64,000 nt of DNA from Mycoplasma sp. Bg1 (GTDB taxonomy: Bacteria > Bacillota_I > Bacilli_A > Mycoplasmatales > Hepatoplasmataceae). The stretch spans positions 120,177 to 184,176 of the forward strand of contig LSMX01000003.1 of the NCBI GenBank assembly GCA_001641205.1, given 5' to 3'. Shown one piece after another: positions 36,118 through 56,670 of this stretch; position 1 is the first letter of the stretch, and every line of letters starts with the position of its first letter. Position numbers and translations under genes: made by a program. Below the pieces are notes generated by a model. That model was not told the DNA's origin and searched no databases. It was given only the letters and a program-made list of their open reading frames with translations.

Positions 36118-36126
36118 GTTTCTCCT

Positions 36127-37368: not shown

Positions 37369-40300
37369 TACATATTCACCCCAGAAATATATTCTTCTGA
37401 TAATTGATGAGGATCATAAGAATCTTCAATGTCTTTTAAAAGACGGTTTTCTTTTCGACAATCTTTTTTATGACGATAGATTGCTGCAAGTAAAGGATAG
37501 AAAGTTAAATTGTTTAAAATAATAAGTGGGGGAATTATAAAAAACATACACATTCCTGCAATTGCTGCAGTTCCTGCATAAGCAATTGCAATTGCAAAAA
37601 AGATAAATCCTAATCCCCAAATTAATAGTGAAATCATTAATAAATTTTTTGCTCCTTTTGCATAAGCTTCTTTATAAATTTCTAGATCTGTTGAATCTTG
37701 TACTTTTATTTTTTTAGTTCCTCTTGATGAAATTGTTAATTTAGAAATTAATGAAAATAATCCAAGAGCACTAAGTCCTAATCAAAAACTAATTCCAAAA
37801 GGAATTCATAAAATAAAAACAAGGATAAAAGAAGTCAATAATTCTCCAAAAAGAAGCGCAAACATTAAAGCAGCATCAGTTCATCCATACATTATTCAAG
37901 CAAAAATTAACATTGCAATTGCAGCAACAGCTAAAGCAATAAGAACACGATAACCATCATGAGCCTGTGTATAGGGAGTAAATAATGAAGGTAAACCATT
38001 ACCATTAGAAGTATTTACTGGTAGTGCTTCATTTTCTTCTGCTAAAGGTGTTGTATTTACAAGGGAACCAGTTTCTTCTTGTAATGAAAAATTAATTGTA
38101 ATATCATTATTTTTGATGTTGTAACCATTTTTAATTATTAAATCATTTGTGGAAACACCATTAAGTTGAGTTTCAATATCTGATTTTTGTTCTATTGTTA
38201 AAGCATCATAAGAACTTATTTGATAACCAAATCCATAGTTTCAATAAGGAATTGGAGCATCATTACTAGGATTCAATTTGTCTGTTATTCCAAAATGGTC
38301 ATTTCTTACCATTGCTGTTTCTTGAACTTTTATGTGATTATCTTCAAAAGCATCAGTAATATTTGATTCATATTTTTCTCCAAGAGCAAAAATATCTTCC
38401 TGTCCATAAGGATCATCAGAATTTAAATATCCATTTTCTTTACTAGAATCTGCTGCAGTTGTATCTACTCATGGAATAGTTGTATTTGTAGTTTGTCTTC
38501 CTTCATTATTGATTTCATCTTTACCAAAATACCAAAGATATTCTTCATCTACCAAGGTGTCTTCAACATCATTAAATGGATTATAATCAACATTTTGTGG
38601 ACTGTTTTTTGAAACTTGCATAACCACATTGTATTTAAATTCTGCTCTTTCACTACTAGCTCCATTTACTCCAGAACCCATTACTCCAGCAACAACCCCA
38701 AAAAATCCAAAGGTAATTACAGTTGCAAAAACTAAAACAACTCCAAAAGTTTTGGCCATTTTTTCTGATTGTAAAATATTTAATTTTTTATAATAACGGT
38801 CTGTTTCAAGTCCTTGATAAATCATCATTGAACCAGTCATCAAGTTTCAATTAGAAAATCTTTTTTGTCTAATTGTTGTTGAATAACTTGTTCAAACATC
38901 TAATTTATAAAGAAGTAAAGGATAAAATCCAAAAATAAAGATAATACTTAATACTAAAAAGACAATTGCTAAAAAGGCATTTATCCCAATTCAAAGTGGA
39001 GAAATCAAACCAAAGATAAATAGAAAAAGCATAATAAGTCCAAGGGGAATTAAATTATTATTTGTAATTTCAAGGAGATTTTTTTTGTACTTACTAAAAG
39101 GTGTAGTCGATTCATCATTATTATATTTAAATTTGTTTGTAATAAGGATAATAAATCCACAAGCAATAAGCAAGAAAAAGAAGATTGTACTAACAAATAA
39201 AAATCCTGCCGCAACCCCAGAAGCTGCCCCAAGCATTACAAAAATCATTGCTAAAATACTTAAAATTAGATCAGCAATTACTCCAAGAAGTCCAAGATAT
39301 CACATAATAAATAAAGCTACTAAAATAATAATTGTTGCAAAAGTTCAAAAAAGAATTTTCATTGCATTTTCATTTTTTTCATTATAAATAAATGAAGAAG
39401 AAATATAATTAAAATTTAAAGAAGAATTTGCTGCGTAATTAATTTTTTCATTTATTAATTTAGCCTCATTACTTGAAAGAGCTTTTGCTGGAGTTCATTC
39501 AACAAAACCGTCATTAAAAAGACTTGCCGCTTGTCTAACCTCTGTTTCTGAAAGAAGAAATGGTTTTGCTGAAGTTCTCTTGGTAATATTTTCTTGATCA
39601 ATTTGAGCACTTCCTTCTCTTTCTGATTTTACTGGATCCATAAAAGCATAAACTAATAATGGATCAACAGTATAAGCTGTTTCAGTCATTATTGGTTCAC
39701 CATTTTCATCAGTTTCTTCTGATTCACTTTGTGTTGTAATTTGATTTTTAGTAGAAGCACCGGCAGCCATTGCTCAGCCATCTTTATCAAAGGTGGTAAC
39801 TAATTTTTGATAAATATCATAGCCAGTTCACATGTAGGCTGTTCCAAGCATAGAATTATCTTGAGCACCAGTTGAAAGTTTAGTGGAAGCATCAATTGCT
39901 AAATCTAAATAATCTTCATCATTAAAAATAAGTTTAAAGTAGGCTTTACCACCATTATATTTTACAGTTGAAGATTCAATTAATTGATAACCACTAGAAG
40001 ATTCCTTAATTGCAGGAGAAATTGATGGATGTGCACTTGCAAGATCAATTGTCATATCATCTCCACTACCATCAGATTCAGGTTCGGAAACTACTCCAGT
40101 AAATGAATCTTCTACTAGAACATAATCATAATCAGCTCCAGACCCGCTTACTTCAAACATAGGATCACCCTGAACTGTTCTAAATTCAAGGTCTTCATTT
40201 ACAAAAGAATAACTATAAGCAATTGCAAGTCCTTTTTGTAATTGTTCAATTGATTGTCAAGAAAAGGGATTTTCATCATCAAGTCAATTTAAAGGCAAGT

Positions 40301-40616
40301 TAATCATGATTTCATCATTATTTGAAGTTAACACAATAGCTTGATCAACTCCCGCAACATCAAAACCTTGATCAATTCCACTTGCAAGTTGTTCAAGAGA
40401 ATAATTTGATTGTTCCAAACCAGCAACTTCCATTACAATTTGATAATGGTCATCCATAATAGGAGCACTATTATATTGAGCAACATTGTCTTGATTTTCA
40501 TGAGTATAATGAGAAATTCCAAATCCAGAACCTATAATAGTTCCAAAAAAAACAATTCCCCCTAGAATAGAGAAACAAATTTTTCTAGAATTTTTTTTCA
40601 AATTTATTTTCTTCAT
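37368..40616 (-). CDS. 1082-aa polytopic membrane protein with SecDF-like topology (putative divergent SecDF)
   Basis: Six track pieces (40284, 39828, 39495, 38991, 38469, 37368) share one frame, and each boundary stop I checked is TGA. I also translated the 39249..39494 gap and the first codons below 38469 and found no TAA/TAG. The rest of the large gap 37638..38468 and the other short gaps were read by eye only. Topology is TM1, large loop, a roughly 5-TM block, TM, second loop, a roughly 5-TM block. It lies upstream of hisS-aspS, as secDF does in Bacillus. Confidence 0.5.
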
Positions 40617-40617
40617 T

Positions 40618-40857
40618 TTATATTTCAGGATTGATTATTGAATTTATTCATAAAAATTCAATAATTTCTTTAGTTTTATCTCCATTTGCAAAATTAATTA
40701 AACTCTTTTTATTTAAGTTAGACTGAGAAAATTCATAGCGATCTAAAAAAAGTAAAAGATCATTTAAATTAATAGTAATATCCTCTTCAAGTTGAAGTTG
40801 AATTATTTTAATTATTAAAATAGAAATTATAAATTGGACTTTCTTAGAGCTTTTCAT
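40618..40857 (-). CDS. hypothetical protein (79 aa)
   Basis: The 40648..40857 piece extends through TGA to TAA at 40618, directly upstream of the large membrane-protein gene. Confidence 0.35.
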
Positions 40858-40919
40858 ATTCTCTATAATTATATAAGACTTAAATATTTTTATTTTAATT
40901 AAATAATTATTTATAAGAA

Positions 40920-40940
40920 AAAACTAGTAAAACTAGTTTT
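40920..40940 (-). terminator. terminator hairpin downstream of ldh copy 1
   Basis: Stem aaaactagt/actagtttt with a 3-nt loop, flanked by A/T runs. Confidence 0.45.
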
Positions 40941-40958
40941 TAATTTAAGAATCTTGTT

Positions 40959-41918
40959 TTATTTTTTAATTGTAGAAACTGCTTTTAGGGTTACTTCTTT
41001 TAAAGTAGAAACAGATTCAATAAATTGTTTTTTTTCTTTTTCTGAAAGATCTAATTCAAAAGTACGAATAATTCCTTCTTTTCCAATTAAACAAGGAATT
41101 CCTGCATAAGTTCCTTCCATCCCATATTCTCCAGAAAGAAGTGCTCCCGTTGCAAAGACTCTTTTTTCATCTCTTAAAATTGCTCTTGCAATATCAGTAA
41201 GGTTCATTCCAATTCCATAATAGGTTGCTCTTTTACGATCAATAATTTCATAAGCTTTTTTTCAAACAGTTTCATGAACTTTTGCAAGTTTTTCCTCTGT
41301 AAGTCCATATTTATCATATAGTGTTGATAGTTTAACTCCATTTAAAGTTGCAACTGAAAATGTTGAAACTGATGAATCACCATGTTCTCCCATTACATAA
41401 ATTCCAAAATCTCTTGGTGCTGCGTCTTCGATTAATTTAGATAATTCTAATTTTAATCTTGATGTATCAAGTGCACATGATGCTGAAATAACTTTACTTG
41501 GTTCAAATCCTGTAACTTGTTGAAAAACTGTAGTCATCACATCAACAGGATTTGAAGCAACAATTGTCACTCCTTCAAACCCATTTGCTTTAACTTGATC
41601 AGCAATTGATTTCATAATTTTGACATTATCTTCAACCATTGCAAGTCTTGTTTCACCTGGTTTTTGAGGTCTCCCTGCAGTAATTACAAGTAAATCTGCA
41701 TCTTTTACAAGTTCATAACCACCATTTTCAACAATATAATCTGTTGCTGTAGTTCCTCTTCCATCTTCAAGATCAAGTTTTTGACCATAAGCAACTTCTT
41801 CATTAATATCGATAATTCCATAATATTTTGCTAAATTTTGATTTGTTGCTGCATATAAGAATGACATCCCGACAAATCCCGCACCAATAAGCACTACTTT
41901 GTTTGTTGTATTTTTCAT
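40959..41918 (-). CDS. ldh: L-lactate dehydrogenase (canonical specificity loop)
   Basis: VVLIGAGFVGMS (Rossmann fold), loop ITAGRPQKPGETR (Gln102/Arg109 equivalents), LDTSRL, GEHGDS. Two same-frame pieces joined by TGA. Confidence 0.88.
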
Positions 41919-42087
41919 TTTTTCTCCAATAATAATTATATTTCTATTATATTACTAAATAATTAAGGAAATTTAAATATTTTAGATGGTTTGTTTTTTA
42001 TAAAAAAATAAAACAATTAAATAAAATAAATTTAATTTTTTTCTAATATTATTTAAATAAATTATTTAAATAAAGTAAGGGAAAAAC

Positions 42088-42321
42088 ATGAAAACAGAAA
42101 CAGACATAAAAACATTTTATTATTTAGGATTAATCTTTTTATTTATAGGATTATCAATATTTTTTGGAGTATTAGCAGGTTACTGTCATGAAGGAATAAA
42201 ATCTGCAAAGGATAGTTCTTATTATACTGCAACATTAAATCAGCATTTAATTTACTATTCATTTATTCTTTTGATATTTTTGCAATTCTTTTTACAATAT
42301 ATTCATTTAATAATTTTTTAA
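42088..42321 (+). CDS. small 2-TM membrane protein (77 aa), member of the repeated TM-module family
   Basis: ..KTFYYLGLIFLFIGLSIFFGVLAGY...LIYYSFILLIFLQFFLQYIHLIIF. Same layout as the two modules inside 48771..49517. Confidence 0.5.
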   Translation: MKTETDIKTFYYLGLIFLFIGLSIFFGVLAGYCHEGIKSAKDSSYYTATLNQHLIYYSFILLIFLQFFLQYIHLIIF

Positions 42322-42542
42322 ATTGTTTAAACGAAAAGAAAAAATTAAAATATGAAACTAATTACAATCCTATTAATTTTAAAAATACTCAAAATTAATA
42401 AAATAATAGGATTAAATATACTGTTTTAAATTAAAACCCTCAAAACTTTAATTTTTTATTTTATAAATAGCCTCCAACAAGAAAGCACTTTATTTTTAGT
42501 ATAATTATATTATTATATTCACAAAATAAAGGAAAAATAACT

Positions 42543-42977
42543 ATGCCACGAAGAAGAAGGGGTAAACCCATTATGACAACTGCTGTAACTATGAGTGCAA
42601 TGTCAAATAGAAAAACAAATAAAATGCAACAACAGCAAATGCAACAACAACAAACTCAGCAAACTCAACAACAACAAAATTATGCTACAGCACAAGACCC
42701 AATGCAACCTGCAACTCCTGTTCAACCAGAAGTAGTTGCACCAATAAAAGAAGAAGAACAAGCAGATCAAATTAGAACTATTGCTTCTGCAATTTCACTT
42801 TATCGAAAAAAAGGTTTAAGTTTTGCAGAAATCTTTACCAAAGTTGAAGCTTATAATAAAGGTTTTAAAAGTGAAGAAGATTTTAAAAAAGGATATTTAG
42901 ACTTTGTAAATGAAGAAGCAATTACTAATCCTAAATGAGAATCTGTACTTGAATTTGAACTAGAGCACCAAGAATAA
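42543..42977 (+). CDS. Arg/Gln-rich protein with conserved C-terminal domain, paralog A (144 aa)
   Basis: MPRRRRGKPIMTTAVTMSAMSNRKTNKMQQQQMQQQQTQQ.. then IRTIASAISLYRKKGLSFAEIFTKVEAYNKGF..W(TGA)ESVLEFELEHQE. RBS aaaggaaaaa and a tataat box lie upstream. Confidence 0.7.
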
Positions 42978-43017
42978 AATTCTAATTTAAATTTATAAAT
43001 TTGTTTATTATTAAAAT

Positions 43018-43047
43018 AAAAAAATAGGAATTAATTCCTATTTTTTT
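43018..43047. terminator. terminator hairpin (aaaaataggaatt/aattcctattttt family), copy 1
   Basis: Palindrome centred at 43032/43033 and flanked by A-run and T-run, so it could act in both directions (Q-rich gene on plus, ldh-like 2 on minus). Confidence 0.6.
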
Positions 43048-43128
43048 ATTTTCTTTATGTAATTTAAAATTTCCACTTTACAAAAAGCATTAATTCTTAT
43101 ATTAAGACTAATCTTATCTTTTATAATT

Positions 43129-44097
43129 TTAATTCTCTTCCCTAATTATAGAAAATGCTTTTAAGTTTAATTCTTTTAAAATTGAAATAGATTTAATAAA
43201 TTTAGCTTTTTCTTTTTCTGAAAGATCTAATTCGAAAGTTCTAATAATTCCTTCTTTTCCAATTAAACATGGAATTGCTGCATAAGTTCCTGCAATTCCA
43301 TATTCCCCCGAAAGAAGTGCTCCCGTTGCAAAAACTCTTTTTTCATCTCTTAAAACTGAACAAGCAATATCAACTAAAACCATTCCAATTCCATAACTAG
43401 TTAATCCTTTACGATTAAAAATTTCATAAGCTTTTTTTCAAACAGTTTCATGAACTTTAGCAAGTTTTTCTTCTGTAAGTCCATATTCTTCATATAATGT
43501 TGATAACTTAACTCCTTTTAATGTTGCAGCTGAAAATGCTGCAACAGAAGAATCTCCGTGTTCTCCCATTATATAAACATCAAAATCTTTTGGGGCTGCA
43601 TTTTCAATAAGTTTTGAAAGTTCTATTTTAAGTCTTGAAGAATCAAGAACACATGAAGCTGAAATTACTTTATTTGGTTCAATTCCAGTAATATGTTGAT
43701 AAATTATTGAAGCAGCTTCAAGTGGAGCTGAGGCAATAATAGTTATTCCTTTAAATCCGCTTGCTTTAACTTGAACTGCAATTGATTTCATAATTTTTAC
43801 AGTTCCTTCTAATAAATCATGTCTTGTTCCACCTGGTTTTAATGGTCCTCCCCCAGCAGCAATAATAAGTAAATCTGCATCTTTTAGAAGTTCATATCCA
43901 CCATCTTCTACAATATAATCACTTTCAATAGATCCTCTTCCATCTTCAAGATCAAGTTTTTGGCCATGAGCAAATTCACTTTTTAAATCAATAATTCCAT
44001 AATATTTTGCTAAATTTTGGTTTATTGCTGCATATAAAAATGATGTTCCTACATATCCAGCACCAATAACTACTACTTTATTTGTTGTATTTTCCAT
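43129..44097 (-). CDS. LDH-family 2-hydroxyacid dehydrogenase, variant specificity loop (paralog 2)
   Basis: VVVIGAGYVGTS, LDSSRL, GEHGDS, but the loop reads IAAGGGPLKPGGTR. That is one extra residue, Leu in place of Gln102, and Gly in place of the Glu before Thr-Arg. Confidence 0.8.
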
Positions 44098-44228
44098 TTC
44101 TACTCCTATTATAATTATTTTTTTAATCCTTAAAATTAATAAATATAAGACATTCTATGATCTTTATACCATTTTAAAATTTTTAAGTGAACTTTTACCT
44201 CTACTTAGGTTTTATTCCATAAATAACT

Positions 44229-45197
44229 TTAATTCATTTCTTCAATTATAGAAAGTGCTTTTACTTTTAAATCTTTTAAAACCAAAACAGATTTAATAAA
44301 TTGAGTTTTTTCTTTTTCTGAAAGTTCTAATTCAAAAGTACGAATAATACCTTCTTTTCCAATTAAGCAAGGAATTCCAGCATAAGTTCCTGCAATTCCA
44401 TATTCTCCTGAAAGAAGTGCTCCCGTTGCAAACATTCTTTTTTCATCTCTTAAAATTGAACGTGAAATGTCAACTAAAGTCATAGCAATTCCATAACAAG
44501 TTAATCCTTTACGATTAAAAATTTCATAACCTTTTCTTCAAACAGCTTCATGAACTTTAGCAAGTTTTTCTTCTGTAAGTCCATACTCATCATATAATGT
44601 TGAAAGTTTAACTCCTTTTAATGTTGCAACTGAAAAAGCAGAAACTGATGAATCTCCATGTTCTCCCATTACATAAATTCCAAAATCTTTTGGAGCTACA
44701 TTTTCAATAAGTTTTGAAAGTTCTAATTTAAGTCTTGAAGAATCAAGTGCACATGAAGCTGAAATTACTTTATTTGGTTCAAATCCAGTAACATGTTGAT
44801 AAATTGTTGTTGCTATATCAACTGGATTTGAAGCAATAACAGTTACTCCTTTAAAATCATTTGCTTTAACAGAAACTGCAATTGATTTCATAATTTTTGC
44901 GGTATCTTCAAGTAAATCAAGTCTTGTTCCGCCTGGTTTTAATGGCCCACCACCAGCAGCAATTATAAGCAAATCTGCATCTTTTACAAGTTCATAACCA
45001 CCATCTTCTACGATATAATCAGTTCCAATAGATCCTCTTCCATCTTCAAGATCAAGTTTTTGGCCATGAGCCATTTCTCTATTTAAATCAATAATTCCAT
45101 AATTTTTTGCTAAATTTTGGTTTATTGCTGCATATAGAAATGAAGTTCCTACATATCCGGCCCCAATAACTACTACTTTATTTGTTGTATTTTCCAT
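44229..45197 (-). CDS. LDH-family 2-hydroxyacid dehydrogenase, variant specificity loop (paralog 3)
   Basis: Same variant loop IAAGGGPLKPGGTR. Very similar to paralog 2 along its whole length. Confidence 0.8.
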
Positions 45198-45453
45198 TTT
45201 TTCCCCTCCAATAATTATATTTCATTATATTATTAAATATTTAACTGATTTAAAATATTTTAAAAAATCATTATACATAATTTATAAATTAAAAAAAACA
45301 AATTTATACTACAATAAAAAAATAAAATTAATAAAAACTTTAATTACATAAATAAGTTAAATTAATTTTAAAATAAACTTATTAATTGAGGAATAGATCT
45401 TATTTAGTATAATTTTATTATTATATTTATGAAATAAAGGAAAAAAAGTAATC

Positions 45454-45879
45454 ATGCCAAGAAGAAGAAGGGGAAGACCTCTTATGACAACCGCTGTAAC
45501 AATGAGTGCATTATCAAATAGAAAAACAAATAAAATGCAACAACAACAAATGCAGCAAGATCAACAAACGCAACAACAAAACTATGCAACAGCACAACAA
45601 CCAATGCAACCTGTTGCGCCTATTCAACAAGAAGTAGTTGCGCCAATACAAAAAGAAGAACAAACAGATCAAATTAGAACTATTGCTTCTGCAATTTCCC
45701 TTTATCGAAAAAAAGGATTAAATTTTGCAGAAATCTTTACTAAAGTAGAAGCTTATAATAAAGGCTATAAAAATGAAGATGACTTTAAAAAAGGATATTT
45801 AGATTTTGTAAATGAAGAAGCAATTAGTAACGCTAAATGAGAATCTGTACTTGAATTTGAATTAGAAAACCAAGAATAA
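45454..45879 (+). CDS. Arg/Gln-rich protein with conserved C-terminal domain, paralog B (141 aa)
   Basis: MPRRRRGRPLMTTAVTMSALSNRKTNKMQQQQMQQDQQTQQQ.. ..IRTIASAISLYRKKGLNFAEIFTKVEAYNKGY..W(TGA)ESVLEFELENQE. Its upstream region is homologous to that of paralog A. Confidence 0.7.
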
Positions 45880-45908
45880 AGCTATAAGAAAGTATCATTA
45901 AAATGAAT

Positions 45909-45941
45909 AAAAAAAATAGGAATTAAATTCCTATTTTTTTT
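45909..45941. terminator. terminator hairpin (ataggaatt/aattcctat family), copy 2
   Basis: aaaaaaaataggaattaaattcctatttttttt. Confidence 0.6.
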
Positions 45942-45956
45942 ATTATTATCTAAATT

Positions 45957-46354
45957 CTAATATGTATGTGTTGCTTCTTTTCCTTCAAGAATATCAACAC
46001 CGTTTGAAGTTCCAATTCTACTTGCCCCAGCATTAATATATGCTTCAGCATCTTCGTAGGTTCTAACTCCACCTGCAGCTTTAATTTTTGTATCAGGATT
46101 AATATTATCTTTCATAATTTTTACTGCTTCTAAAGTAGCTACTGAACAATCAATTCCTGTAGAAGTTTTTACAAAATCTCATTTTGCATTACTTGCAATT
46201 CTTGATGCTTTTGCAATTTGATCATCGCTAAGAAGAGCAATTTCTAAAATAATTTTAATTGTTGTTCCTTCTGTTGCAGCTCTAATTGCTTTTAGCTCAT
46301 TTTCAACGTATTCTCAATCTCCTGATTTAATCATGGAAACATTAATTACATAAT
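45957..46354 (-). pseudogene. deoC 3' fragment (about 132 C-terminal codons), copy 1
   Basis: Near-identical (a handful of mismatches by eye) to 49854..50251 of the intact deoC, including the stop codon. Homology ends abruptly after ..aattacataat at 46354. No 5' part and no start codon. Confidence 0.85.
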
Positions 46355-46555
46355 TAAATCTATCTACTTCTTTTATAAAAGCACTTTTTTTACTATACAA
46401 ATTTTAGTATTATTATTTTTATTTCAAAAAAATTACAAAATAAAACTAAAAATACAAAAATGATGTTTGTAATTATTGTAATTTAGATGAAATTAATTAG
46501 ATTAATTGTTTTAATAGTTATTTTAATTTAAAAAAGAATCATTTTCTCAATAAAT

Positions 46556-47176
46556 TTAGTTATTTATAATATTAAATATTTTTCTTGCAAACTGAAAATA
46601 TTCTTCTGTAGGTATTATTTTTGTTATTGGAATATCATAATTACTATGTACAATTTTATTTCTTTCAGAAATTATTTTTTTTCAAAGTTCATTATCATTA
46701 TTGGTTAAATTTTCAAAATTATCAATAATTAAAGAATGATAAAAATGATTATTTTTATTTTTTGTATTTAACAAAATAGAAATATCTTTTTTAACATTAC
46801 AGTTATTTCAAGTTTTGTTATTTAAAAAATCACTAATAAGTTTTATAAATAATTTTTTATTAAAATCATCAATATCCTCTCTTAACAAAATTTTGCCAGT
46901 AATTCTACTTATTTTTTCTCTATTATTGATATTTTCATCACTTAAAGATCTTTCAAAAAAATATTCAGACATTTTTGAAATAATATTTTTATCTAAAAAT
47001 TTATAACTTTCATTTTGAATACTCATTAAAACAAAATTTTTTCATTTGGTTTCTATTTCAGATACAATAAAAATATAAAAATACTCCACAATTATTTTTT
47101 GTTTAGGTGTAGTTACATCAAAAGAACTATTTTTAAGTTTTTTTTCCAGATAATTTAAGATTTCTATGTTTTCCAT
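46556..47176 (-). CDS. HEPN-like protein (206 aa) with C-terminal R-x4-H motif
   Basis: ATG at 47176 lies 1 nt after the DUF262 stop. The C-terminus ..ELW(TGA)KKIISERNKIVHSNYDIP.. contains RNKIVH (Rx4H). Codons 46556..46700 were hand-translated. Confidence 0.5.
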
Positions 47177-47177
47177 T

Positions 47178-48407
47178 TTAAATAATTAAATAATCACTAA
47201 ATGCGGTAAAAATTTTAGTATATTTCAACATTAATTGATTATTATTTCCTGTTCCTATTTTCAAACTTAAAAAAAATTTTTTTTCTTTATCATTAATAAA
47301 AAGAGATTTATAAATTTCTTGAAATTGCTGTTTTGAAATTTTTTCAAAATCTAGATATTTAAATAAAATTAATGTTGCCTCTGCCAAAGAAATATTAATT
47401 TTATTATCAAAATTAAAAAAATTCTCATTTTTTGAATTAGAATAAATTCTAAATATTTTAATTCCATCAAAATATTCTTTTAATTTATACATTAGCTTAT
47501 TTAAATCATTAATAATTTGCTCATTTTTTTCAATAGAATTTTTTGATGCTAATTTCATATAATTGTTTATTAAATAAATAATTCTTCCATTATAATCCAA
47601 AATTTTAATAGAAATTTCATTAAAATTATTTCTACTAAGTCTTATTTTTTCATAAAAAGACAAATATCTAAAAATAAGTTCGGTGTTTTTCATTCTTTTA
47701 ACAAAAACAGAATTTAGTGTTAAGTTTTCAAAAACTTTTCACTCTAAATTATCATTAGTAAATTTTTTGATTTTAGAGTTTAAATCACTTCTATAAATTG
47801 CATTACGTAATTCTTGAGTATTTAATTTCATAGATCCTTGGTTTAATCTAGAAAAAATATCAAATTTTAAAGATTCATCAGATCCTTTTCTAATTCTTAT
47901 TGTTTGTAAAACTTGAGTTTTTAAATAATTTTGGACTCCTATATTTAATTCTTCAAATTTTTTGCCATTTAAATTTTCAAATGATTCTAAACCTCTTAAT
48001 TTTCATTCATTATGTAAAAATGTTTGAATGGTTGTTAATCTTTGGACACCATCTATAACGTCAAATTTTGAATTTGTAGTTTCAAATAAATAAACTGGAG
48101 GTATAGTAATATTAATTAAGAGTGATTCAATAAATTTTGCTCCATTTAATATTGATCAAACAAAATTTCTTTGAAATTCTGGACTAATATTTCAATCTTC
48201 ATCATCTAATCTTCTACAAATATCTTGCAATTCAATGTTGGTGGTATCTATTATTAATGATTTAGGTTTTCAACCTTTTTCTTGATTATTAGCTTCATCA
48301 CTATCAAATTCTTCTTCTTTTTCATCATAACCAGAGTTTTTTTCAAAATCATCATTTTCTTTAGTCAAAATTGGTGCAAACTCTAATTCCTTAATTTTAT
48401 TATTCAT
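47178..48407 (-). CDS. DUF262 (ParB/GmrSD N-terminal-like) domain protein, 409 aa
   Basis: ..NISPEFQRNFVW(TGA)SILNGAKFIESLLINITIPPVYLFE..FDVIDGVQRLTTIQTFL (QR..W and DGxQR motifs). Acidic N-terminal extension. No DUF1524/HNH-type C-terminal domain recognised. Confidence 0.7.
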
Positions 48408-48492
48408 AATATTCCTTTTTATAATTATATAATTTTAAATAAACTAATTTAAAATTACTTTATTATTTAAAATAAATTTTGCATTTTTATAA

Positions 48493-48518
48493 AAAAATAG
48501 GAATCTAGTTCCTATTTT
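48493..48518. terminator. terminator hairpin family, copy 3 (degenerate loop)
   Basis: aaaaataggaa tctag ttcctatttt. Confidence 0.45.
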
Positions 48519-48530
48519 AATATTTAAAAT

Positions 48531-48756
48531 CTAATATGTATGTGTTGCTTCTTTTCCTTCAAGAATATCAACACCGTTTGAAGTTCCAATTCTACTTGCC
48601 CCAGCATTAATATATGCTTCAGCATCTTCGTAGGTTCTAACTCCACCTGCAGCTTTAATTTTTGTATCAGGATTAATATTATCTTTCATAATTTTTACTG
48701 CTTCTAAAGTAGCTCCTGAACAATCAATTTTTGTAGAAGTTTTTACAAAATCTCAA
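48531..48756 (-). pseudogene. deoC 3' fragment (about 75 C-terminal codons), copy 2
   Basis: Near-identical to 49854..50079 of the intact deoC. Homology stops at ..acaaaatctca, and 15 nt further on comes the stop codon of the next gene. Confidence 0.85.
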
Positions 48757-48770
48757 TTTAAAATAATTGC

Positions 48771-49517
48771 CTATTCTTGATTTTCCAATTCAAATTCAAG
48801 TACAGATTCTCATTTTTGATTAGTAATTGCTTCTTTATTTACAAAATCTAAATATCTTTTTTTAAAGTCCTTTTCATTTTTAAAACCTTTATTATAAGCT
48901 TCAACTTTAGTAAAAATTTCTGCAAAATTTAATCCTTTTTTTCTATAAAGGGAAATTGTAGAAGCAATAGTTTTAATTTGATCTATTTGTTTTTCATATA
49001 TAGATGCATCTGTCTCTAATTGAATATGGGCAGTAGTTTGTACTAATTTTAATGGTGTTTCATTATTATATAAACAAAGTATGCTTTTTATTATTCAATA
49101 TATTGATAAAAAAATTGTAAAAATGTCTATAAAAATAAATGCAATATAGAGAGAGTTGATTCAACTTGAAATCCCTACAGAATTAAACATTAGATCATTA
49201 ATTTCTTTTGTATATATTCCAAATAAAATTGCTAAGCCAAAAAATAAGAAGAATAAACCAAAATATATAATTACTTTAAATTGGTTAATATTTATATTAT
49301 TTTTGTCTATTTCTAAACAAAATATAATTTTTATTATTCAATATATTGAAAATAAAATTGCAAAAATATCGAAAAAAACAAAACTAGTGCGCCGTGCTCC
49401 ATAATATCAATGAAAATGATGTGCAATTACCCCAAACACAATTGCTAATGCTAAAAATAAAAATAATAATCCAAAATATAATATTACTTTAAATATATTC
49501 TTCTGTTGCAAATTCAT
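48771..49517 (-). CDS. fusion protein: two tandem 2-TM modules + the conserved C-terminal domain of the Arg/Gln-rich family (248 aa)
   Basis: I translated codons 49517 down to 48972 one by one and read the remaining 3' codons down to the TAG at 48771 by eye; no TAA/TAG was seen. MNLQQKNIFKVILYFGLLFLFLALAIVFGV..FDIFAILFSIYW(TGA)IIKIIFCL / ..NQFKVIIYFGLFFLFFGLAILFGI..FIDIFTIFLSIYW(TGA)IIKSILCL, then ..DQIKTIASTISLYRKKGLNFAEIFTKVEAYNKGF..WESVLEFELENQE. Confidence 0.7.
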
Positions 49518-49803
49518 TATTTTCCCCCAACAATTTAATAGTCTTATAATTTTAATTATATATTTAATGATAAAATAATGATTTAAATATATATTTATCT
49601 CCTATTTTTAATATATAAAATTATGTAATATAATAGCAATCTTCATATAAACATTTATATTTTTAAATATTTTTATTCACAATTCCTTTTTGCAAAAAAA
49701 CTAAATAATCAAGTGATTTTTAATTTTAAATAAAAATTTATAATCAATTCTATACTAGAACATCAAGAATAAATTTATAAATAAATATCATCAAAAATAA
49801 ATT

Positions 49804-49832
49804 AAAAAATAGGAATTAACTTCCTATTTTTT
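49804..49832. terminator. terminator hairpin family, copy 4
   Basis: aaaaaataggaa ttaac ttcctatttttt, directly downstream of the intact deoC. Confidence 0.6.
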
Positions 49833-49853
49833 AATGTTTATTATTTATAAATT

Positions 49854-50516
49854 CTAATATGTGTGTGTTGCTTCTTTTCCTTCAAGAATATCAACACCGT
49901 TTGAAGTTCCAATTCTGCTTGCCCCAGCATTAATATATGCTTCAGCATCTTCGTAGGTTCTAACTCCACCTGCAGCTTTAATTTTTGTATCAGGATTAAT
50001 ATTATCTTTCATAATTTTTACTGCTTCTAAAGTGGCTCCTGAACAATCAATTCCTGTAGAGGTTTTTACAAAATCTCATTTTGCATTACTTGCAATTCTT
50101 GATGCTTTTGCAATTTGATCATCGCTAAGAAGAGCAATTTCTAAAATAATTTTAATTGTTGTTCCTTCTGTTGCAGCTCTAATTGCTTTTAGCTCATTTT
50201 CAACGTATTCTCAATCTCCTGATTTAATCATGGAAACATTAATTACATAATCAAGTTCATCAGCACCTCTTCTAATTGCATCTTGGCCTTCAAAAACTTT
50301 AGCTTCGGTAGTTTGAGTTCCATAAGGAAATCCAACTACAGCTGTAATTCCAATGTTATTTGCATGTAATCTTTCTTTTACATAGTCAATTCACATTGGG
50401 TGAATACATAATGTAATAAAATTTCATTTAATTGCATCTTCTACGTATTTATCTAAAATTTCTTTTGTTGAATCTCTTTTAATTAAAGTGTGATCAATAT
50501 ATCTATTTAATTCCAT
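49854..50516 (-). CDS. deoC: deoxyribose-phosphate aldolase
   Basis: MELNRYIDHTLIK.., CIHPMW(TGA).., VVGFPYG.., W(TGA)DFVKTSTG (Schiff-base Lys), AAGGVRT. 220 aa, with TAG at 49854. Confidence 0.9.
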
Positions 50517-50713
50517 TTAAATTTCTCCTTTTATTAGTTAAGTTAAATCATAATCTTTTTTATCATATAATTATTAATTTTTAAATAATTTATAAGTTTT
50601 TTGCATTTCTATTAAAGCAATTTTAAGTCTTTTTGCTTTTTATTTTCTTTTTACCTAAATTATTATACTACATAAAATTATCATTACTAGTAAGAAGGAT
50701 AATTTATAATATA

Positions 50714-52099
50714 TTAAAATTTTTGGAAATATTCTAAATCTATTCCGTTTAATTCTAATCGCTTATTAATATAATTCTTAGTTTCTGGTGTTAAAATTGT
50801 TGAAATTAGAGAATGTTCTAATTTTTCTGATTTAATTTGCTTAACAATTTCCCCATATTCATCCTTTTTAATTCAAATATTTCCCTCTTGATCAAAAACT
50901 AATATATTTTTATCAAATAATTTATGAATAGTTGGGCCTAGTAATAAACCATTTTCAGGATCATATTTTTCATCTTTATTACATTTTATAAAATCAACAA
51001 TATGAGAAGCTTCTATTGCATACGAATTTTTCATTCCTTTAATTAAATCATTTTTATTAATAAATTCTTGTTCATTAATTTCAATATATCTTTTAATATC
51101 ATTCAATAAAAGTTGACGATATTGTACTTGTCCTGGTCTACCATTATCATTTTTTATAAAAAATTCTAAAACTTTAGATTGAATTGTTAAAATTTCTACT
51201 TTTCAATCATTTAAATATTTTTCAAATAAAAAATCATTTAATTTATTAAAGATAGTCATTGCTAAATTTAAATCATTTTTAATTAAATTTTTAATTGTTG
51301 TTTGAGTTCCGAAATGTTTTCCAATAGAAGATTTTCCACTTTTATGTGTTTTAAATAATTCTGGAAGAGGAATTTTTTGGTTTTTTTGTTTTCTTAAAAT
51401 TACTACAATATCTAAGCAAACTGGAAAATTGCTATTACATAATTCATATAAAAAGAGTGCATGTAATGAAAAGAAAATATCTCTAATTGAATAACCCTTA
51501 ATATATTTTAGATTAAAATAATTTTTATAATTATTAACAAAATTAGATGCTAAATCAATCTTATCAATAATATAATCATCAATTATTTTTGATTTAAAAA
51601 TTAGATTAAAATAATTACTTGGAGCAAAATCTTTTTGAATTTCCAAATAACCCAAGCTTGCCATAACCTCTATAAATTGTCTTAGAGTTGATTTTGCAAT
51701 TAACTTTTTAAAATTTCTTCTATCATTAAAATAATCTTCTATTTTAAAAATTCACTCTCCCTCTTTTCCAATATAAAGAGCACTAGTTAAATAAGTTAAT
51801 TTTTGATCAACTCTTTTATAAATATTTAGATAATACCGTTTTTCTTTTTTAGTCTTTTTTTGTACTTTTAAAATTGATTCTTTTCATTCAAGAAAAATTT
51901 CTTCTTTTTCTAAATCAAGATTATAAGTTTTTAATAAATAGATAAACAAATTATTTATCCGACATAAATGAGTAAAAAAATCAGTTCCCATTGTTCAAAC
52001 AAATCCTCATTGATCTTTTTTAGTAATATCATCATTCATTTCAACTTGTTTTTGATAGATTGCTTTAATTTTAGTAATTTGATCTTTTGAAAATTCCAT
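50714..52099 (-). CDS. putative type II restriction endonuclease with C-terminal HNH (HNH_2-like) nuclease motif, 461 aa
   Basis: ATG at 52099 lies 1 nt after the methylase stop and is preceded by ggagga. C-terminal ..EASHIVDFIKCNKDEKYDPENGLLLGPTIHKLFDKNILVFD. Pieces 51203 and 50873 share one frame. Confidence 0.65.
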
Positions 52100-52100
52100 C

Positions 52101-53398
52101 TTATTCCTCCAAAGTAGACATATAGTAAAATATCATTTCGATGATATTTACTGCAATTGAATTTCCTGCCTGTTTATAAAGCTTTTCTCTTGCTTGATTA
52201 TCTGTCTTAGCTCGGTATTTTTTAGTAACAAGAAGCATCTCTTTTTTAGCACTTTGATACTGCTTTTCACTAAAACCCATAAGAAGATATGCTTCTCTTG
52301 GGGTAATAAATCTTCAATTAGTATAATCAACTCCATTATTATCAAATCTTTTATTATTAAAAGCAACTGATCCACAATTTGGTAATCTATCCTGTTTTGT
52401 TGTTACTGTTGGAATATGTTTTAAATTAATATCAATGCAAGGAGAAGAATCAATCATTCTTATTCTTGAAGGAGTATTTTTAATTTGTGCTCAAAGCGAT
52501 TCTTCAAAATCTTTATTAGAAAAATCTATTAATTTCTTAATAGGTTTTTTATTTTTTGGTTGATAAATTTTACAAGTATAGATTTTTTTTAAAATAATTT
52601 CAAGATCATCTCTTGTTCCTTTTCAAGAAACTATTTCATTATTAGGATCATAAATAGAAAAAGCATAAACACGGCGTCTTTTTTGGACCATTCCAAAATC
52701 ACTTGAATAGAGCATTCCCCAAATTGTTTTATAACCTAAAAGCTCTAATTGCTCCATCCAAGCATCAAAGTCTGCTCGATGTTGTTTTTGAACTAAATTA
52801 GGAACATTTTCAAGTAGGAGGAATTTTGGTAATAAATTTGGGCGTCTCTCTCTCTCTCTCTCTCTCTCTCTTCTTGAATTGCTTTAAGATTTATTAAAAC
52901 CTTTTCAATTTCAAGAAGTAACCCTGATCTGGTATGGGCTTTTATTCCCTCATTAAAGCCGTGAAAATTACCTGCAGTAGATAAATCAGTACAAGGAAAA
53001 GAATAAGTAAGCAAGTCTACTCCATTGTTATCTTCAATTATTTTTTTTATTCTAGTAGTTGAATCTACTATAGTTCCAATGTTACTAGCAACTTTGAAAG
53101 CTTTATATCAATCAAGTTTTACTTCTTTTTTAATTGTAGAAGTATTTAAAAAAGGTTTTGATCCATCAAGACTAAAAGTATTTTTTTTAATTCAATTATC
53201 AAGTTCATCATCAGTTGGAGTTTTAATCTTACTTCGATAATTTTTATAATGAATTGCAGCATAGGACTGAGCAGCAAAAACATCCCAATCGGATGTTCCT
53301 ATAATTTCATAATCAAGAATGCCTTTACTCTTTAAGTTTTTTAGGGCAGTATTTTGTGCTCCAATTCCACTAAAAGTTTCAATAACTTTAAATTTCAT
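52101..53398 (-). pseudogene. DNA (cytosine-5)-methyltransferase, out of frame at an internal (GA)13 tract (candidate phase-variable gene)
   Basis: 5' frame: MKFKVIETFSGIGAQ (motif I), SFPCTDLS (motif IV). After the repeat, the motifs continue in another frame: RPNLLPKFLLLENVPNLV (VI), QKRRRVY (VIII), ITPREAYLLMGF, GNSIAV (X). Total length is 1298 nt, which is not a multiple of 3. Confidence 0.85.
52845..52870 (-). repeat. (GA)13 dinucleotide tract inside the methyltransferase ORF
   Basis: Thirteen tc units on the plus strand, counted directly. 12 or 15 units would restore a single 431/433-aa frame. Confidence 0.95.
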
Positions 53399-53528
53399 AT
53401 AAAAAAATTATATACAGAGGCAAAACTAAAACTGCTGTGAAAAAAATAATATAATGATTTAATAATATAGAAATTCAATTTTTAGAAATATTGATAATAA
53501 ACCTTTTACCACATAAATTGTGTTTATC

Positions 53529-53543
53529 TTTTTTTTTTTTTTT
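53529..53543 (+). promoter_or_regulatory. T15 homopolymer in the divergent promoter region between the methyltransferase and surface-protein gene 1
   Basis: 15 consecutive T, counted. It ends 65 nt upstream of the ATG at 53609 and is followed by tataaat (53557..53563). Confidence 0.5.
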
Positions 53544-53608: not shown

Positions 53609-54733
53609 ATGAAGAAACAATATTTAATTGGTTTACTAGGACTTACAATAATATTTACCCCAGTTGCAAATAGTTTATTAAGTACCAATTCAAAATTATT
53701 TAATTCTACATATACAAATAATCAAATACAAGAAGAATCTATAATTAACGAAGAAAATAGCCAAGTAATTGTAAAAGATCTTGATAATGATGGAAAAGCA
53801 AGTCAGGGTGATCAAATTGATGAAATACAATTTAGTGCTAATTATGATGAATTTTATCCTCTTTATGAAGATAAATCTAAAACTACTTCATCTAATGAAT
53901 ATGGATTAAATATTTATCCAGAAAATTCACCTAATACTGTAAAACCTTTTTATAGTATTTCTTATAATCAAATTGATGAGTTAAATCAAAATCAAAATGT
54001 AGACTTTTTAAATTTTGATTTTAATTCTACTAATAATCCAACTTGAAAAATTTGAGATGCAAAACTTCCTGATAGTAGTCAAGAATTTATCATAACTGCA
54101 GAAAGCAAAAAAGATAATCATCAAGAAAAAATAATAGAAAATAATATTGGTGAGGTTTCAATTACACCATATATAAAGGATGAAAATGACTGAAGCGAAC
54201 CAAAAGTTTATGATGCAAAAGTAACCGAGAATCCAACTGGTGCATTTATGAACCCACAAGCAACTATCTCCTATGAAGTAGATTATGGTAATAATGGAGG
54301 TGACCGTGGTGGAAAAAAATATCAATTGACAAAACTAGAAATCATTAATATAAACGGTACTGAAATTAAAAATGGTACAAAATATGCAGACAAAGCAAAC
54401 CAAGGTAGCATTGGAGATGATGATTGATTGATAATACTAACTCCTAATACATATTATGATTTATATATGAAGGCAATTTTTCATGACCCTGATGATAAAA
54501 ATGCTGAAGGAATTACTCAAACAGTAAAATTTGATGATGATAGTGGCAAATTTGATACTTTTGATGATAAAGATCCTGATCCCACACCGCCCATTCCCAC
54601 ACCGCCCATTCCCACACCACCTGGTCCTTCTAGTAGTAATACAATGATAATGATTGGAATAATAATTGGAGTTATACTCTTTGTTGGAATTATTTCTTTC
54701 ATCGGATATTATTTATATAAAAAAAATAAATAA
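53609..54733 (+). CDS. surface protein family member 1 (374 aa): signal peptide, ectodomain, Pro/Thr stalk, C-terminal TM anchor
   Basis: MKKQYLIGLLGLTIIFTPVANS.. (no lipobox Cys), DLDNDGKASQGDQIDE, PTPPIPTPPIPTPPGP, then IMIGIIIGVILFVGIISFIGYYLYKKNK. Pieces 53609 and 54428 share one frame and are joined by TGA. Confidence 0.75.
54581..54620 (+). repeat. 15-bp tandem repeat encoding the PTPPI stalk (about 2.7 copies)
   Basis: cccacaccgcccatt cccacaccgcccatt cccacaccac. Confidence 0.85.
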
Positions 54734-54821: not shown

Positions 54822-54995
54822 TAATCTTACATCAATTATTATAATAAATCACAACATTAAGTTGAGCAACAAAAACATTCTACTTAAAATATTTTTATAA
54901 TTTTGAAATAAAAAAATACCTTTATTCTTTAAGTTTTTTAAAGCAGTATTTTGTGCTCTAATTCTGCTAAAAATTTCAAGAACTTTAAATTTCAT
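54822..54995 (-). pseudogene. decayed copy of the methyltransferase 5' end
   Basis: MKFKVLEIFSRIRAQNTALKNLKNKG.. versus MKFKVIETFSGIGAQNTALKNLKSKG of the full gene. Internal deletions, with motif I destroyed. Homologous to about 53214..53398. Confidence 0.8.
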
Positions 54996-55193
54996 ATAAA
55001 AAATTATATGTAAAAGTAAAGATAAAACTATTGTATATAATGATTTAATAATATAGAAATTCAATATTTAAAAACATGATAATAAATCTTTTACCACATA
55101 AATTGTGTTTATCTTTTTTTTTTTTTTTGTTATTACATTATTATAAATTTATAGATAAATAGCAAATTTTAAGAAAGGAATAAGTAAATAAAT
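54996..55193. repeat. duplicate of the 53399..53608 divergent intergenic/promoter region
   Basis: Same sequence blocks (..taatatagaaattcaat.., ..ttaccacataaattgtgtttatc-Tn-gttatt.., aagaaaggaataagtaaataaatATG). Confidence 0.85.
55113..55128 (+). promoter_or_regulatory. T16 homopolymer upstream of surface-protein gene 2
   Basis: 16 consecutive T, counted. Same position as the T15 tract in the paralogous promoter. Confidence 0.5.
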
Positions 55194-56651: not shown

Positions 56652-56670
56652 AAAGAAAGGGAAAACAAAT

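Follow-up and report, generated by a model that had tools for sequence, protein, structure and literature searches.

The locus described here raises the question of whether a DUF262 gene without the usual nuclease half, followed by a small gene with a HEPN-like motif, represents a defence system that matches no described one, as the initial annotation proposed, or a divergent copy of a known type. Both genes are located in a 64-kb window (the whole stretch of DNA that was analyzed), in which open reading frames were called under genetic code 4, where TGA is a Trp codon. ORF calling with table 11 was dropped because it splits both genes, each being interrupted at TGA, while table 4 leaves both intact. 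TGA encodes every Trp of the two proteins (5/5 in gene A and 3/3 in gene B; 8 altogether). The two genes and the signals around them are as follows:

47178–48407, minus strand: gene A, encoding a predicted DUF262/ParB-like NTPase of 409 aa (code-4 ORF)
46556–47176, minus strand: gene B, encoding a probable HEPN RNase of 206 aa, divergent RiboL-PSP/MAE_28990-type
47174–47180, minus strand: gene junction TAA-A-ATG with a 1-nt spacer, read directly from the sequence
48453–48424, minus strand: promoter-like TTTAAA-18-TATAAT upstream of gene A; no other minus-strand match in the region comes closer to the consensus
48417–48413, minus strand: Shine-Dalgarno sequence AAGGA upstream of gene A

The earlier reading that the 206-aa gene starts 1 nt past the stop codon of the 409-aa gene is exact, and this junction suggests co-transcription and possibly translational coupling. 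Promoter-like consensus matches upstream of gene A are no commoner than in shuffled sequences.

The gene A protein is organized as an N-terminal DUF262 domain followed by a second domain, with these features:

47793–48191, minus strand: DUF262 domain, aa 73–205 (Pfam envelope)
48156–48173, minus strand: QRxxxW (in FQRNFVW), aa 79–84 (motif scan)
48039–48053, minus strand: DGxQR (DGVQR), aa 119–123 (motif scan)
47841–47855, minus strand: FxxxN (FSRLN), aa 185–189 (motif scan)
47181–47792, minus strand: C-terminal, mostly helical domain, aa 206–409, counterpart of NsnA-C/ParBDB, containing no nuclease motif

All three motifs that mark DUF262 are thus present, in agreement with the initial annotation; Pfam recognizes GmrSD_N/DUF262 with an E-value of 4e-23, and the motif residues are invariant in alignments of 16 and 94 sequences of relatives. 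The proposed lack of a nuclease half also stands. No DUF1524 or other nuclease is matched by Pfam at E ≤ 1, and neither the AlphaFold model (pLDDT 84.9, with a confident helical C-terminal domain) nor the Foldseek search with it reveals one. The structural neighbors are all ParB-type (ParB, Noc, PadC, KorB, BrxU, SspE, and sulfiredoxin), and His-Me, HNH, and PD-(D/E)xK folds are absent from these matches. Among the PADLOC models, NsnA matches the protein nearly end to end (E = 1.5e-65, positions 17–381 of 385) and scores higher than PD-T4-2_A (8.7e-34, 115 bits, positions 15–284 of 363), while the Dazbog, SspE, and HEC-05/06 models give no match at E ≤ 1. Judged from the sequence and the predicted structure, gene A encodes a DUF262/ParB-like NTPase that lacks a nuclease and whose helical domain is homologous to NsnA-C/ParBDB, the DNA-binding domain defined for Menshen (PMC12065111).

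The initial annotation had allowed that the two genes might be paired in no other genome, and we found that they clearly co-occur. The two-gene organization (a DUF262 gene and a small partner) is present in 41 of the 79 loci of relatives in reference genomes and in 67 of 80 such loci on viral contigs, and two-gene relatives are also found on plasmids. All three of the nearest relatives that were looked up encode a small partner with an Rx4H motif. An alignment of 36 partners (35 from relatives plus the window protein) contains 34 members that match Pfam PF18735 (HEPN_RiboL-PSP) at E ≤ 0.01, with a best value of 7.5e-24. The syntenic partners of the relatives match PF18735 and PF18737, and gene B occupies the position of the RiboL-PSP-type HEPN beside the DUF262 genes most similar to gene A. 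In a tree of the DUF262 proteins, those of HEPN-partner loci and those of Menshen loci fall in separate clades, with the window protein among the HEPN-partner loci. The NsnA model outscores PD-T4-2_A for every DUF262 protein of the two-gene type tested, so a match to NsnA does not discriminate between the types.

Gene B itself carries two elements that can be aligned to these partners:

46646–46663, minus strand: RNKIVH (R172–H177), matching the catalytic Rx4H motif of HEPN proteins, its R followed by a polar N, aligned to the partners' invariant R and H
47039–47053, minus strand: E42-T-K-W-K46, an upstream acidic Ex3[KR] element, E42 being invariant in the partner alignment

The Rx4H motif announced near the C-terminus of the 206-aa protein (as ERNKIVH) is confirmed at aa 172–177 and is the sole Rx4-6H motif in the sequence. 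Both elements follow the definition of HEPN proteins, in which the R of an Rx4-6H motif is followed by a polar residue (N, D, or H) and a conserved acidic residue lies upstream, typically within Ex3[KR] (PMC3710099). In the alignment of 36 partners, no columns but those of E42, R172, and H177 are invariant, and I175 is conserved in at least 90% of the sequences. By itself, an Rx4H motif is weak evidence for HEPN: one of any sort occurs in 8.4% of composition-preserving shuffles of the gene B protein, and R[NDH]x3H within the last 70 residues in 0.6%.

Profile searches go further. The gene B protein matches PF18735 over almost the full profile (E = 0.0046, positions 7–186 of 191), with 17.3 bits being under the gathering score of 28.4; this is its only Pfam match at E < 0.01, and none of ten shuffled or reversed controls matches the HEPN families. 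On a family HMM built without the gene B protein, it scores 27.2 bits, compared to 21.6 for the best of 2000 shuffles, and with null2 correction a single one of these shuffles exceeds it. Single-sequence searches of 5.8 and 1.84 billion proteins return only the gene B protein itself. Hhalign of its sequence against the partner family gives a probability of 58% over 41 C-terminal residues, and 13% against a larger, more heterogeneous partner family; with the enlarged partner HMM, gene B is no longer the best match among the window ORFs. AlphaFold models the protein entirely as helices, one of which ends at H177, at a pLDDT of only 38.6. This prediction failed because the profile search with the partner alignment yielded only two usable relatives and hence too shallow an MSA. 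A sequence search of the PDB with the partner profile gives chance-level matches only, and no PADLOC model, PD-T4-2_B included, matches the protein. No nucleotidyltransferase lies beside the HEPN candidate, whose neighbor is the DUF262 protein.

The partners belong to the RiboL-PSP/MAE_28990 HEPN families (PMC3710099), with the Rx4H motif and the upstream acidic residue, from which the gene B protein differs in being sub-threshold in Pfam and in having no L-PSP fusion. The full-length PF18735 match, the clean shuffles, the Ex3K and RNx3H motifs, and the partner synteny together lead us to call the gene B protein probably a HEPN RNase of a divergent RiboL-PSP/MAE_28990-type. The HEPN identity first proposed for it is thus retained as probable on synteny, motifs, and clean controls, with a HEPN match that is itself weak.

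The claim that the pairing matches no described system does not hold. The entry for PD-T4-2, which Vassallo et al. (2022) described from E. coli ECOR65, reads “DUF262, HEPN”; when cloned, the system protects E. coli against T4, and its deletion from the native strain sensitises to T4 (PMC9519451). In ECOR65 it occupies positions 338334–339873 of contig QOYX01000002, where PD-T4-2A is RCO39066.1 and the B gene is unannotated. In HHpred, PD-T4-2B matches PF18735 HEPN_RiboL-PSP first and PF18737 second (PMC9519451), the same two families as those of the partner proteins here. The RiboL-PSP HEPN family was already tabulated as “operon with ParB” by Anantharaman et al. in 2013 (PMC3710099), and RefSeq names the two members of such pairs “DUF262 domain-containing protein” and “HEPN domain-containing protein”. 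PD-T4-2 and the window pair share two co-oriented genes, a DUF262 gene without DUF1524 and then a small HEPN gene, in accessory DNA. They differ in host (gammaproteobacterial versus a code-4 mollicute) and in size, PD-T4-2 having 1,540 bp and a B protein of ~165 aa, compared to 1,852 bp and 206 aa for the window pair. We read the window pair as a divergent mollicute copy of the described PD-T4-2-type module: the observation is real, and the pairing is not new. The PD-T4-2_B model of PADLOC matches none of 40 partners, including short ones from viral contigs, so the link to PD-T4-2B rests on the published HHpred table; the model appears to be narrow. A blastn search from a two-gene locus of Photorhabdus toward the PD-T4-2 locus of ECOR65 gave no match.

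Three other organizations invite comparison. Menshen (NsnABC; Millman 2022; Li et al. 2025, PMC12065111) shares with gene A the NsnA architecture (ParB-DUF262 plus ParBDB), and for both a logic of sensor and separate RNA effector is proposed. Menshen requires NsnB, an ABC-type ATPase with DUF3696, and the NsnC inPIN-effector protein (PMC12065111), both of which are absent here: HMMs give a best E-value in the 64-kb window of 0.23 for NsnB (built from 25 Menshen loci) and 0.27 for NsnC, no ORF combines an inPIN and an effector domain, and the 206-aa downstream gene has no Walker A motif. GmrSD, BrxU, and SspE likewise have an N-terminal DUF262 NTPase with DGxQR and then a helical domain, and the last two turn up as structural neighbors of the gene A model, but in all three a DUF1524 His-Me DNA nuclease is fused to this part. 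In the window pair, a separate RNase is presumed to act as the effector. A pair on plasmid pAB1 of Acinetobacter baumannii ATCC 17978 has the same order and spacing (376 aa, then 237 aa, with a 6-nt gap). This replicon is mobile, and the pair has a recombinase and RelE/ParE toxin-antitoxin genes as neighbors. Its A protein is ~30% identical to that of gene A, and the pair is known from RefSeq annotation only.

The surroundings of the pair contain these features:

48489–48790: upstream flanking repeat, deoC 3′ end plus downstream hairpin, 94–95% identical to 45910–46218 and 49801–50115
45863–46357: downstream flanking repeat, in which more of the deoC 3′ end is copied (96.3% identity with 49756–50254 across 493 nt)
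45957–46400: deoC remnant ORF of 147 aa, overlapping the downstream flanking repeat (code-4 ORF list)
45943–48771: segment of ~2.8 kb missing in Bg2, comprising a deoC fragment, gene A, gene B, and a deoC fragment
50714–52099: HNH_2 endonuclease, a restriction-modification (R-M) gene, 2.3 kb from the pair
52101–53398: split C5 methyltransferase, an R-M gene

The direct repeats at 45910–46218 and 48491–48790 are 95% identical, and both flanking repeats are copies of the 3′ end of deoC and the region downstream of it, an intact deoC being located at 49854–50516. The related mollicute MAG Bg2 (L170) is collinear with the window by blastn, with the site empty, and neither the gene A nor the gene B protein has a tblastn match (code 4) in it. 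The empty site indicates that the module is an insertion of ~2.8 kb bracketed by duplications of the deoC 3′ end, which bears out the repeat-flanked island of the initial annotation. The R-M system that was placed next to the pair is indeed nearby, though 2.3 kb off rather than adjacent. We rejected a single island of R-M genes and pair, since the R-M genes are present in Bg2, which lacks the pair. The methyltransferase lies outside the A-B operon and predates the insertion.

By analogy with PD-T4-2, we consider it likely that the pair is an anti-phage (or anti-mobile-element) module of the same kind, which an isopod-associated, Hepatoplasmataceae-like mollicute carries as accessory DNA in an insertion of ~2.8 kb. 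In GmrSD, BrxU, and SspE, the DUF262 part senses DNA and NTP turnover activates the attached effector. On this analogy, the gene A protein would act as sensor and switch, binding DNA and nucleotide and keeping the gene B protein inactive. The sign of infection that A recognizes would probably be phage DNA or a modification of DNA, and an NTP-dependent conformational change of A would then release B or let it assemble as an active HEPN dimer. As in other HEPN proteins, this dimer would cut RNA (tRNA, rRNA, or mRNA) in a metal-free manner, leaving 2′,3′-cyclic phosphate ends. Translation would halt, and phage replication would be blocked via abortive infection or growth arrest. We know of no phage of this mollicute host.

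This defence reading depends on the nature of gene B. Instead of a HEPN RNase, the gene could encode an unrelated helical partner that evolves fast (as a regulator, an adaptor, or an immunity protein) and has RNKIVH by chance, in which case the DUF262 protein would cooperate with it by another route. Such a protein would fit an orphan in exhaustive searches with a sub-threshold Pfam match, a weak hhalign result, a failed fold prediction, and a motif of which some form arises in 8.4% of shuffles. We nevertheless regard it as unlikely, since PF18735 was predicted beforehand from synteny and then proved to be the only Pfam match, over the full length and with 0/10 controls; the three columns that never vary among the partners, and no others, are those of E42, R172, and H177; the family HMM score is beaten by only 0–1 of 2000 shuffles; and the positional R[NDH]x3H arises in 0.6%. 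A decayed Menshen system, in which only NsnA was kept, the ATPase (NsnB) and the effector (NsnC) having been lost, and the small downstream ORF is unrelated, draws on NsnA being the best PADLOC match of the gene A protein over its full length. This scenario seems to us very improbable: PD-T4-2_A scores below NsnA on all DUF262 proteins of the two-gene type tested, the tree places the window protein among the two-gene loci rather than with Menshen, the 64-kb window holds no ORF like NsnB or NsnC, and both ORFs are intact with all their catalytic motifs.

The same two proteins could also form what is mainly a toxin-antitoxin-like addiction module, in which the DUF262 protein counteracts a HEPN toxin; it would stabilise the inserted segment instead of giving protection from phage. 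Such a role would fit two genes coupled this tightly, in a segment that recombination between the 95%-identical repeats could remove; plasmid relatives adjoin other toxin-antitoxin genes, and HEPN proteins are common as toxins (PMC3710099). As for the sole tested system of the same architecture, it protects against T4, with deletion in the native strain sensitising to the phage; moreover, 67 of 80 viral-contig relatives are of the two-gene type, viral contigs being a usual place of defence cargo. To our knowledge, the antitoxins of HEPN toxin-antitoxin systems are either an MNT nucleotidyltransferase or an RNA, and a ParB-like NTPase of 400 aa with a DNA-binding domain is unlike these. We therefore hold a pure addiction role to be quite improbable, although addiction and defence roles are not mutually exclusive.

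The window pair clusters with loci of Streptococcus salivarius, Erysipelothrix, and gut Bacilli (L001, L003, L005, and L007), and two of the four distinct partners scanned from this Firmicute group have no Pfam match. There is a small chance that the window pair and this group form a distinct deep DUF262 branch between the PD-T4-2-like and Menshen clades, in which the partners, far diverged from RiboL-PSP HEPN, may have a different target or mode of activation, and that mollicute cassettes may move by duplicating a deoC end of ~300–500 nt on both sides.

A DUF262 gene without DUF1524 that is followed by a small Rx4H protein should be filed under the PD-T4-2-type rather than as a new system. 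With gene A caught by the NsnA model of Menshen and gene B by none, this locus would go uncalled by the PADLOC models, and divergent members of the type are probably under-counted. For work on the mechanism, tractable members of the type have some value; this one needs recoding, and its host is uncultured. For evolution, the locus offers a clean presence/absence polymorphism of the module. Only R-M and CRISPR-Cas9 have been reported in Hepatoplasmataceae-like mollicutes (PMC10928387), to which the pair adds a candidate RNA-targeting defence module.

The gene pair was read with genetic code 4 (TGA = Trp); under the standard bacterial code, TGA breaks obvious housekeeping genes in the window, which has a G+C content of ~25%. 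The resulting open reading frames are:

47178-48407, minus strand, gene A, encoding the DUF262/ParB-like A protein of 409 aa
46556-47176, minus strand, gene B, encoding the B protein of 206 aa

The junction between both genes reads TAA-A-ATG with a spacer of 1 nt, and the coordinates, motifs and spacing in the initial annotation are all correct. TGA is used for all Trp codons of the pair (8/8), the invariant one in QRxxxW among them, and GC3 is ~9% as in host genes, which marks the pair as fully adapted to a code 4 host. The G+C content of the module is 20% and 17% versus 31-32% in deoC and the L-lactate dehydrogenase (LDH), with equal GC3. Gene A is preceded by a promoter-like sequence (TTTAAA-18-TATAAT; in DNA this rich in AT, matches to the promoter consensus show no enrichment) and an AAGGA Shine-Dalgarno sequence.

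The pair is bracketed by two direct repeats that are 95% identical, both being copies of the deoC 3' end and its downstream region:

45910-46218, left repeat, in a copy extending to 493 nt with 96% identity to intact deoC
48491-48790, right repeat

The related mollicute MAG Bg2 (GCA_001641225.1) is collinear with window positions 36000-53000 (80-86% identity). In Bg2, the gene of the transmembrane protein is directly joined to the ‘MPRRRRG’ gene and ~2.8 kb (45943-48771) is missing; tblastn against this 13-kb Bg2 locus gave no match to the A or B protein. Hence, the repeat-flanked island proposed initially has an empty counterpart site, but the restriction-modification (R-M) genes beside it do not belong to the insertion. 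The HNH_2 endonuclease and C5 methyltransferase genes are common to the window and Bg2, and are thus older neighbors located outside the insertion. The defenses listed for Hepatoplasmataceae are only R-M and CRISPR-Cas9 (PMC10928387).

Further genes around the pair are:

40959-41918, 43129-44097 and 44229-45197, minus strand, three LDH paralogues (319-322 aa)
42543-42977 and 45454-45879, Gln-rich ‘MPRRRRG...’ protein gene in two copies, interleaved with the LDH genes
48771-49517, minus strand, multi-pass membrane protein (248 aa)
50714-52099, HNH_2 endonuclease gene, directly downstream of the split methyltransferase
52101-53398, minus strand, C5 cytosine methyltransferase region
53609-54733, 55194-56651 and 56584-60156, plus strand, surface protein genes (signal peptide and C-terminal anchor)

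The LDH/‘MPRRRRG’ array is a local amplification; the collinear Bg2 site has a single LDH and a single ‘MPRRRRG’ gene. The membrane protein shares a C-terminal domain of ~75 aa (…ISLYRKKGLNFAEIFTKVEAYNKG…WESVLEFELENQE) with both ‘MPRRRRG’ proteins, present as inverted repeats of 224-241 nt with 87-91% identity (48771-49517, minus, versus 42753-42993 and 45655-45878, plus), and no Pfam match was obtained for any of these three proteins. A perfect (GA)13.5 tract (52845-52871) lies exactly where the methyltransferase frame breaks into open reading frames of 201 and 218 aa, both PF00145. Together with the HNH_2 gene, this resembles a type II R-M system subject to phase variation and out of frame at present. 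Two T15 tracts (53529-53543, 55114-55128) are located upstream of the paralogous surface protein genes, which are 96% identical across 300 nt of their 5' regions and possibly encode phase-variable surface antigens; the third product (1190 aa) is built of ~95-aa repeats. Between two of these genes, positions 54912-55003 repeat the initial 92 nt of the methyltransferase region (53315-53406) at 89% identity, apparently as a decayed duplicate of its 5' end.

The only Pfam domain of the A protein is GmrSD_N/DUF262 (E = 4e-23, aa 73-205); Pfam gave no match to a nuclease family. Among the PADLOC models, it matches NsnA, the sensor of the Menshen system (sensor NsnA, ATPase NsnB, effector NsnC), over the full length (1.5e-65) and PD-T4-2_A with 8.7e-34. 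It carries the motifs QRNFVW, DGVQR and FSRLN in columns that are invariant in alignments of 16 and 94 relatives, with DGVQR as the majority form among the 94. The AlphaFold model based on the latter alignment is confident (pLDDT 84.9, pTM 0.80). Its structural neighbors in the PDB are only ParB-type NTPases (CTP-binding ParB, Noc, PadC, KorB), BrxU, SspE and sulfiredoxin, and nuclease folds are absent from the matches, in agreement with the initial description of a DUF262 protein lacking the DUF1524 half. The C-terminal half is mostly helical and is the counterpart of the NsnA-C/ParBDB domain, described as DNA-binding (Li et al., 2025, PMC12065111).

Of the DUF262 relatives, the closest three to be looked up come from a gut Bacilli MAG, Streptococcus salivarius and Erysipelothrix rhusiopathiae. 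In each of them, a gene of 238-271 aa overlaps or abuts the DUF262 stop codon and encodes an R-x4-H motif near its C-terminus. Reference genomes, one per species, were scanned for relatives (best 80 of 560 kept). A DUF262 frame could be called in 79 loci, i.e., 76 of these 80 and three from the earlier look-ups. The two-gene type (DUF262 and a partner of 180-340 aa with Rx4H and no Walker A) accounts for 41 of them and the Menshen type (DUF262, Walker-A ATPase, third gene) for 26; the other 12 are mostly cut by a contig end or have different partners. A third recurrent arrangement, neither two-gene nor Menshen type (L011, L012, L027, L092), comprises a DUF262 protein of ~440 aa, 50 nt, a 169-aa protein without Rx4H and a protein of 525-647 aa. 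On IMG/VR contigs, 67 of 80 relatives are of the two-gene and six of the Menshen type. Plasmids carrying relatives number 139; the Klebsiella and Pantoea matches are Menshen, and pAB1 of A. baumannii ATCC 17978 encodes a ‘DUF262 domain-containing protein’ followed by a ‘HEPN domain-containing protein’ (RefSeq), adjoining a recombinase and a RelE/ParE pair. The DUF262 proteins of both types separate cleanly in a neighbor-joining tree, with the A protein among Firmicute two-gene loci. This tree contradicts a decayed Menshen system as the origin of the pair, which is very unlikely, as neither NsnB nor NsnC is found in the window.

Searched with its own sequence, the B protein retrieves only itself (word-indexed search of 5.8 billion proteins; exhaustive HMMER search of 1.84 billion representatives). 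Its single Pfam match below E = 0.01 is PF18735 HEPN_RiboL-PSP (E = 0.0046), aligning residues 4-205 with positions 7-186 of the 191 in the profile, at 17.3 bits under a gathering score of 28.4; one reversed and nine shuffled versions gave no HEPN match. HEPN proteins are characterized by an Rx4-6H motif with N/D/H following the R and by an acidic residue further upstream, which typically belongs to an Ex3[KR] motif; their helices 2 and 3 are separated by a variable insert (Anantharaman et al., 2013, PMC3710099). Both signatures are present (E42-T-K-W-K46, R172-N-K-I-V-H177), and E42, R172 and H177 are the only invariant columns in an alignment with 35 syntenic partners from many phyla. PF18735 is matched by 34 of these 36 sequences, the best with 7.5e-24, and PF18737 HEPN_MAE_28990 additionally by 28. 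With the B protein, 38 of 39 distinct partners form a single connected family (E <= 1e-3). A partner HMM built without the B protein aligns its residues 18-205 with 27.2 bits versus 7.7 +/- 3.5 (maximum 21.6) for 2000 shuffles, one of which equals the real score with composition correction on. Against this, the hhalign probability is 58% for the final 41 residues and 13% when a bigger and more mixed set of partners is used, no PADLOC model matches, and the all-helical AlphaFold model, from an alignment of three sequences, is unusable (pLDDT 38.6). The proposed HEPN identity is probable, though not proven, and a B protein outside the HEPN fold is rather unlikely.

The data establish the domain content, intact catalytic motifs, tight coupling, conserved synteny and accessory status of the pair. 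By analogy with DUF262 in GmrSD, BrxU and SspE, the A protein may be a DNA- and NTP-binding sensor and switch, and the B protein a metal-independent HEPN RNase that, once activated, would stop translation. That the pair is instead a toxin-antitoxin-like addiction module seems improbable.

The E. coli ECOR65 system PD-T4-2 is recorded as ‘DUF262, HEPN’ and consists of two open reading frames in 1,540 bp; the cloned system was validated against T4, and its deletion sensitized the native strain (Vassallo et al., 2022, PMC9519451). In the HHpred table of that study, PD-T4-2A is PF03235 (99.7%), and PD-T4-2B is PF18735 HEPN_RiboL-PSP (97.8%), then PF18737 (96.9%). In reviews, PD-T4-2 appears both under DUF262 systems that lack DUF1524 and under HEPN systems. 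An operon association of this HEPN family with ParB was already listed in 2013 (Anantharaman et al., PMC3710099). The architecture has therefore already been described and functionally validated; we found no mechanistic study of PD-T4-2 in the literature, and it is called largely uncharacterized (Li et al., 2025, PMC12065111). We compared the window pair to PD-T4-2 via PADLOC profile scores.

PADLOC scores of DUF262 proteins by locus type
Menshen loci: NsnA 352-370 bits; PD-T4-2_A 94-114 bits
Two-gene (HEPN-partner) loci: NsnA 220-303 bits; PD-T4-2_A 135-190 bits
A protein of the window: NsnA 220 bits; PD-T4-2_A 115 bits

The scores form a gradient across the locus types. NsnA (PDLC03877) outscores PD-T4-2_A (PDLC04027) in the A protein and in 13 of 13 two-gene DUF262 proteins tested, and PD-T4-2_B matches none of the HEPN partners tested; the NsnA model is broad and type-blind, the PD-T4-2 models are narrow. 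Because of this, the pair is placed as a probable distant member of the PD-T4-2 kind, for which the PADLOC protein models would assemble neither a PD-T4-2 nor a Menshen call. While the initial observation holds, its interpretation is only partly supported: rather than an undescribed variation matching no known system, the locus appears to be a divergent copy of the PD-T4-2-type DUF262 and HEPN module, a kind already known. Tools dependent on these profiles probably miss or mislabel most divergent pairs of this architecture.
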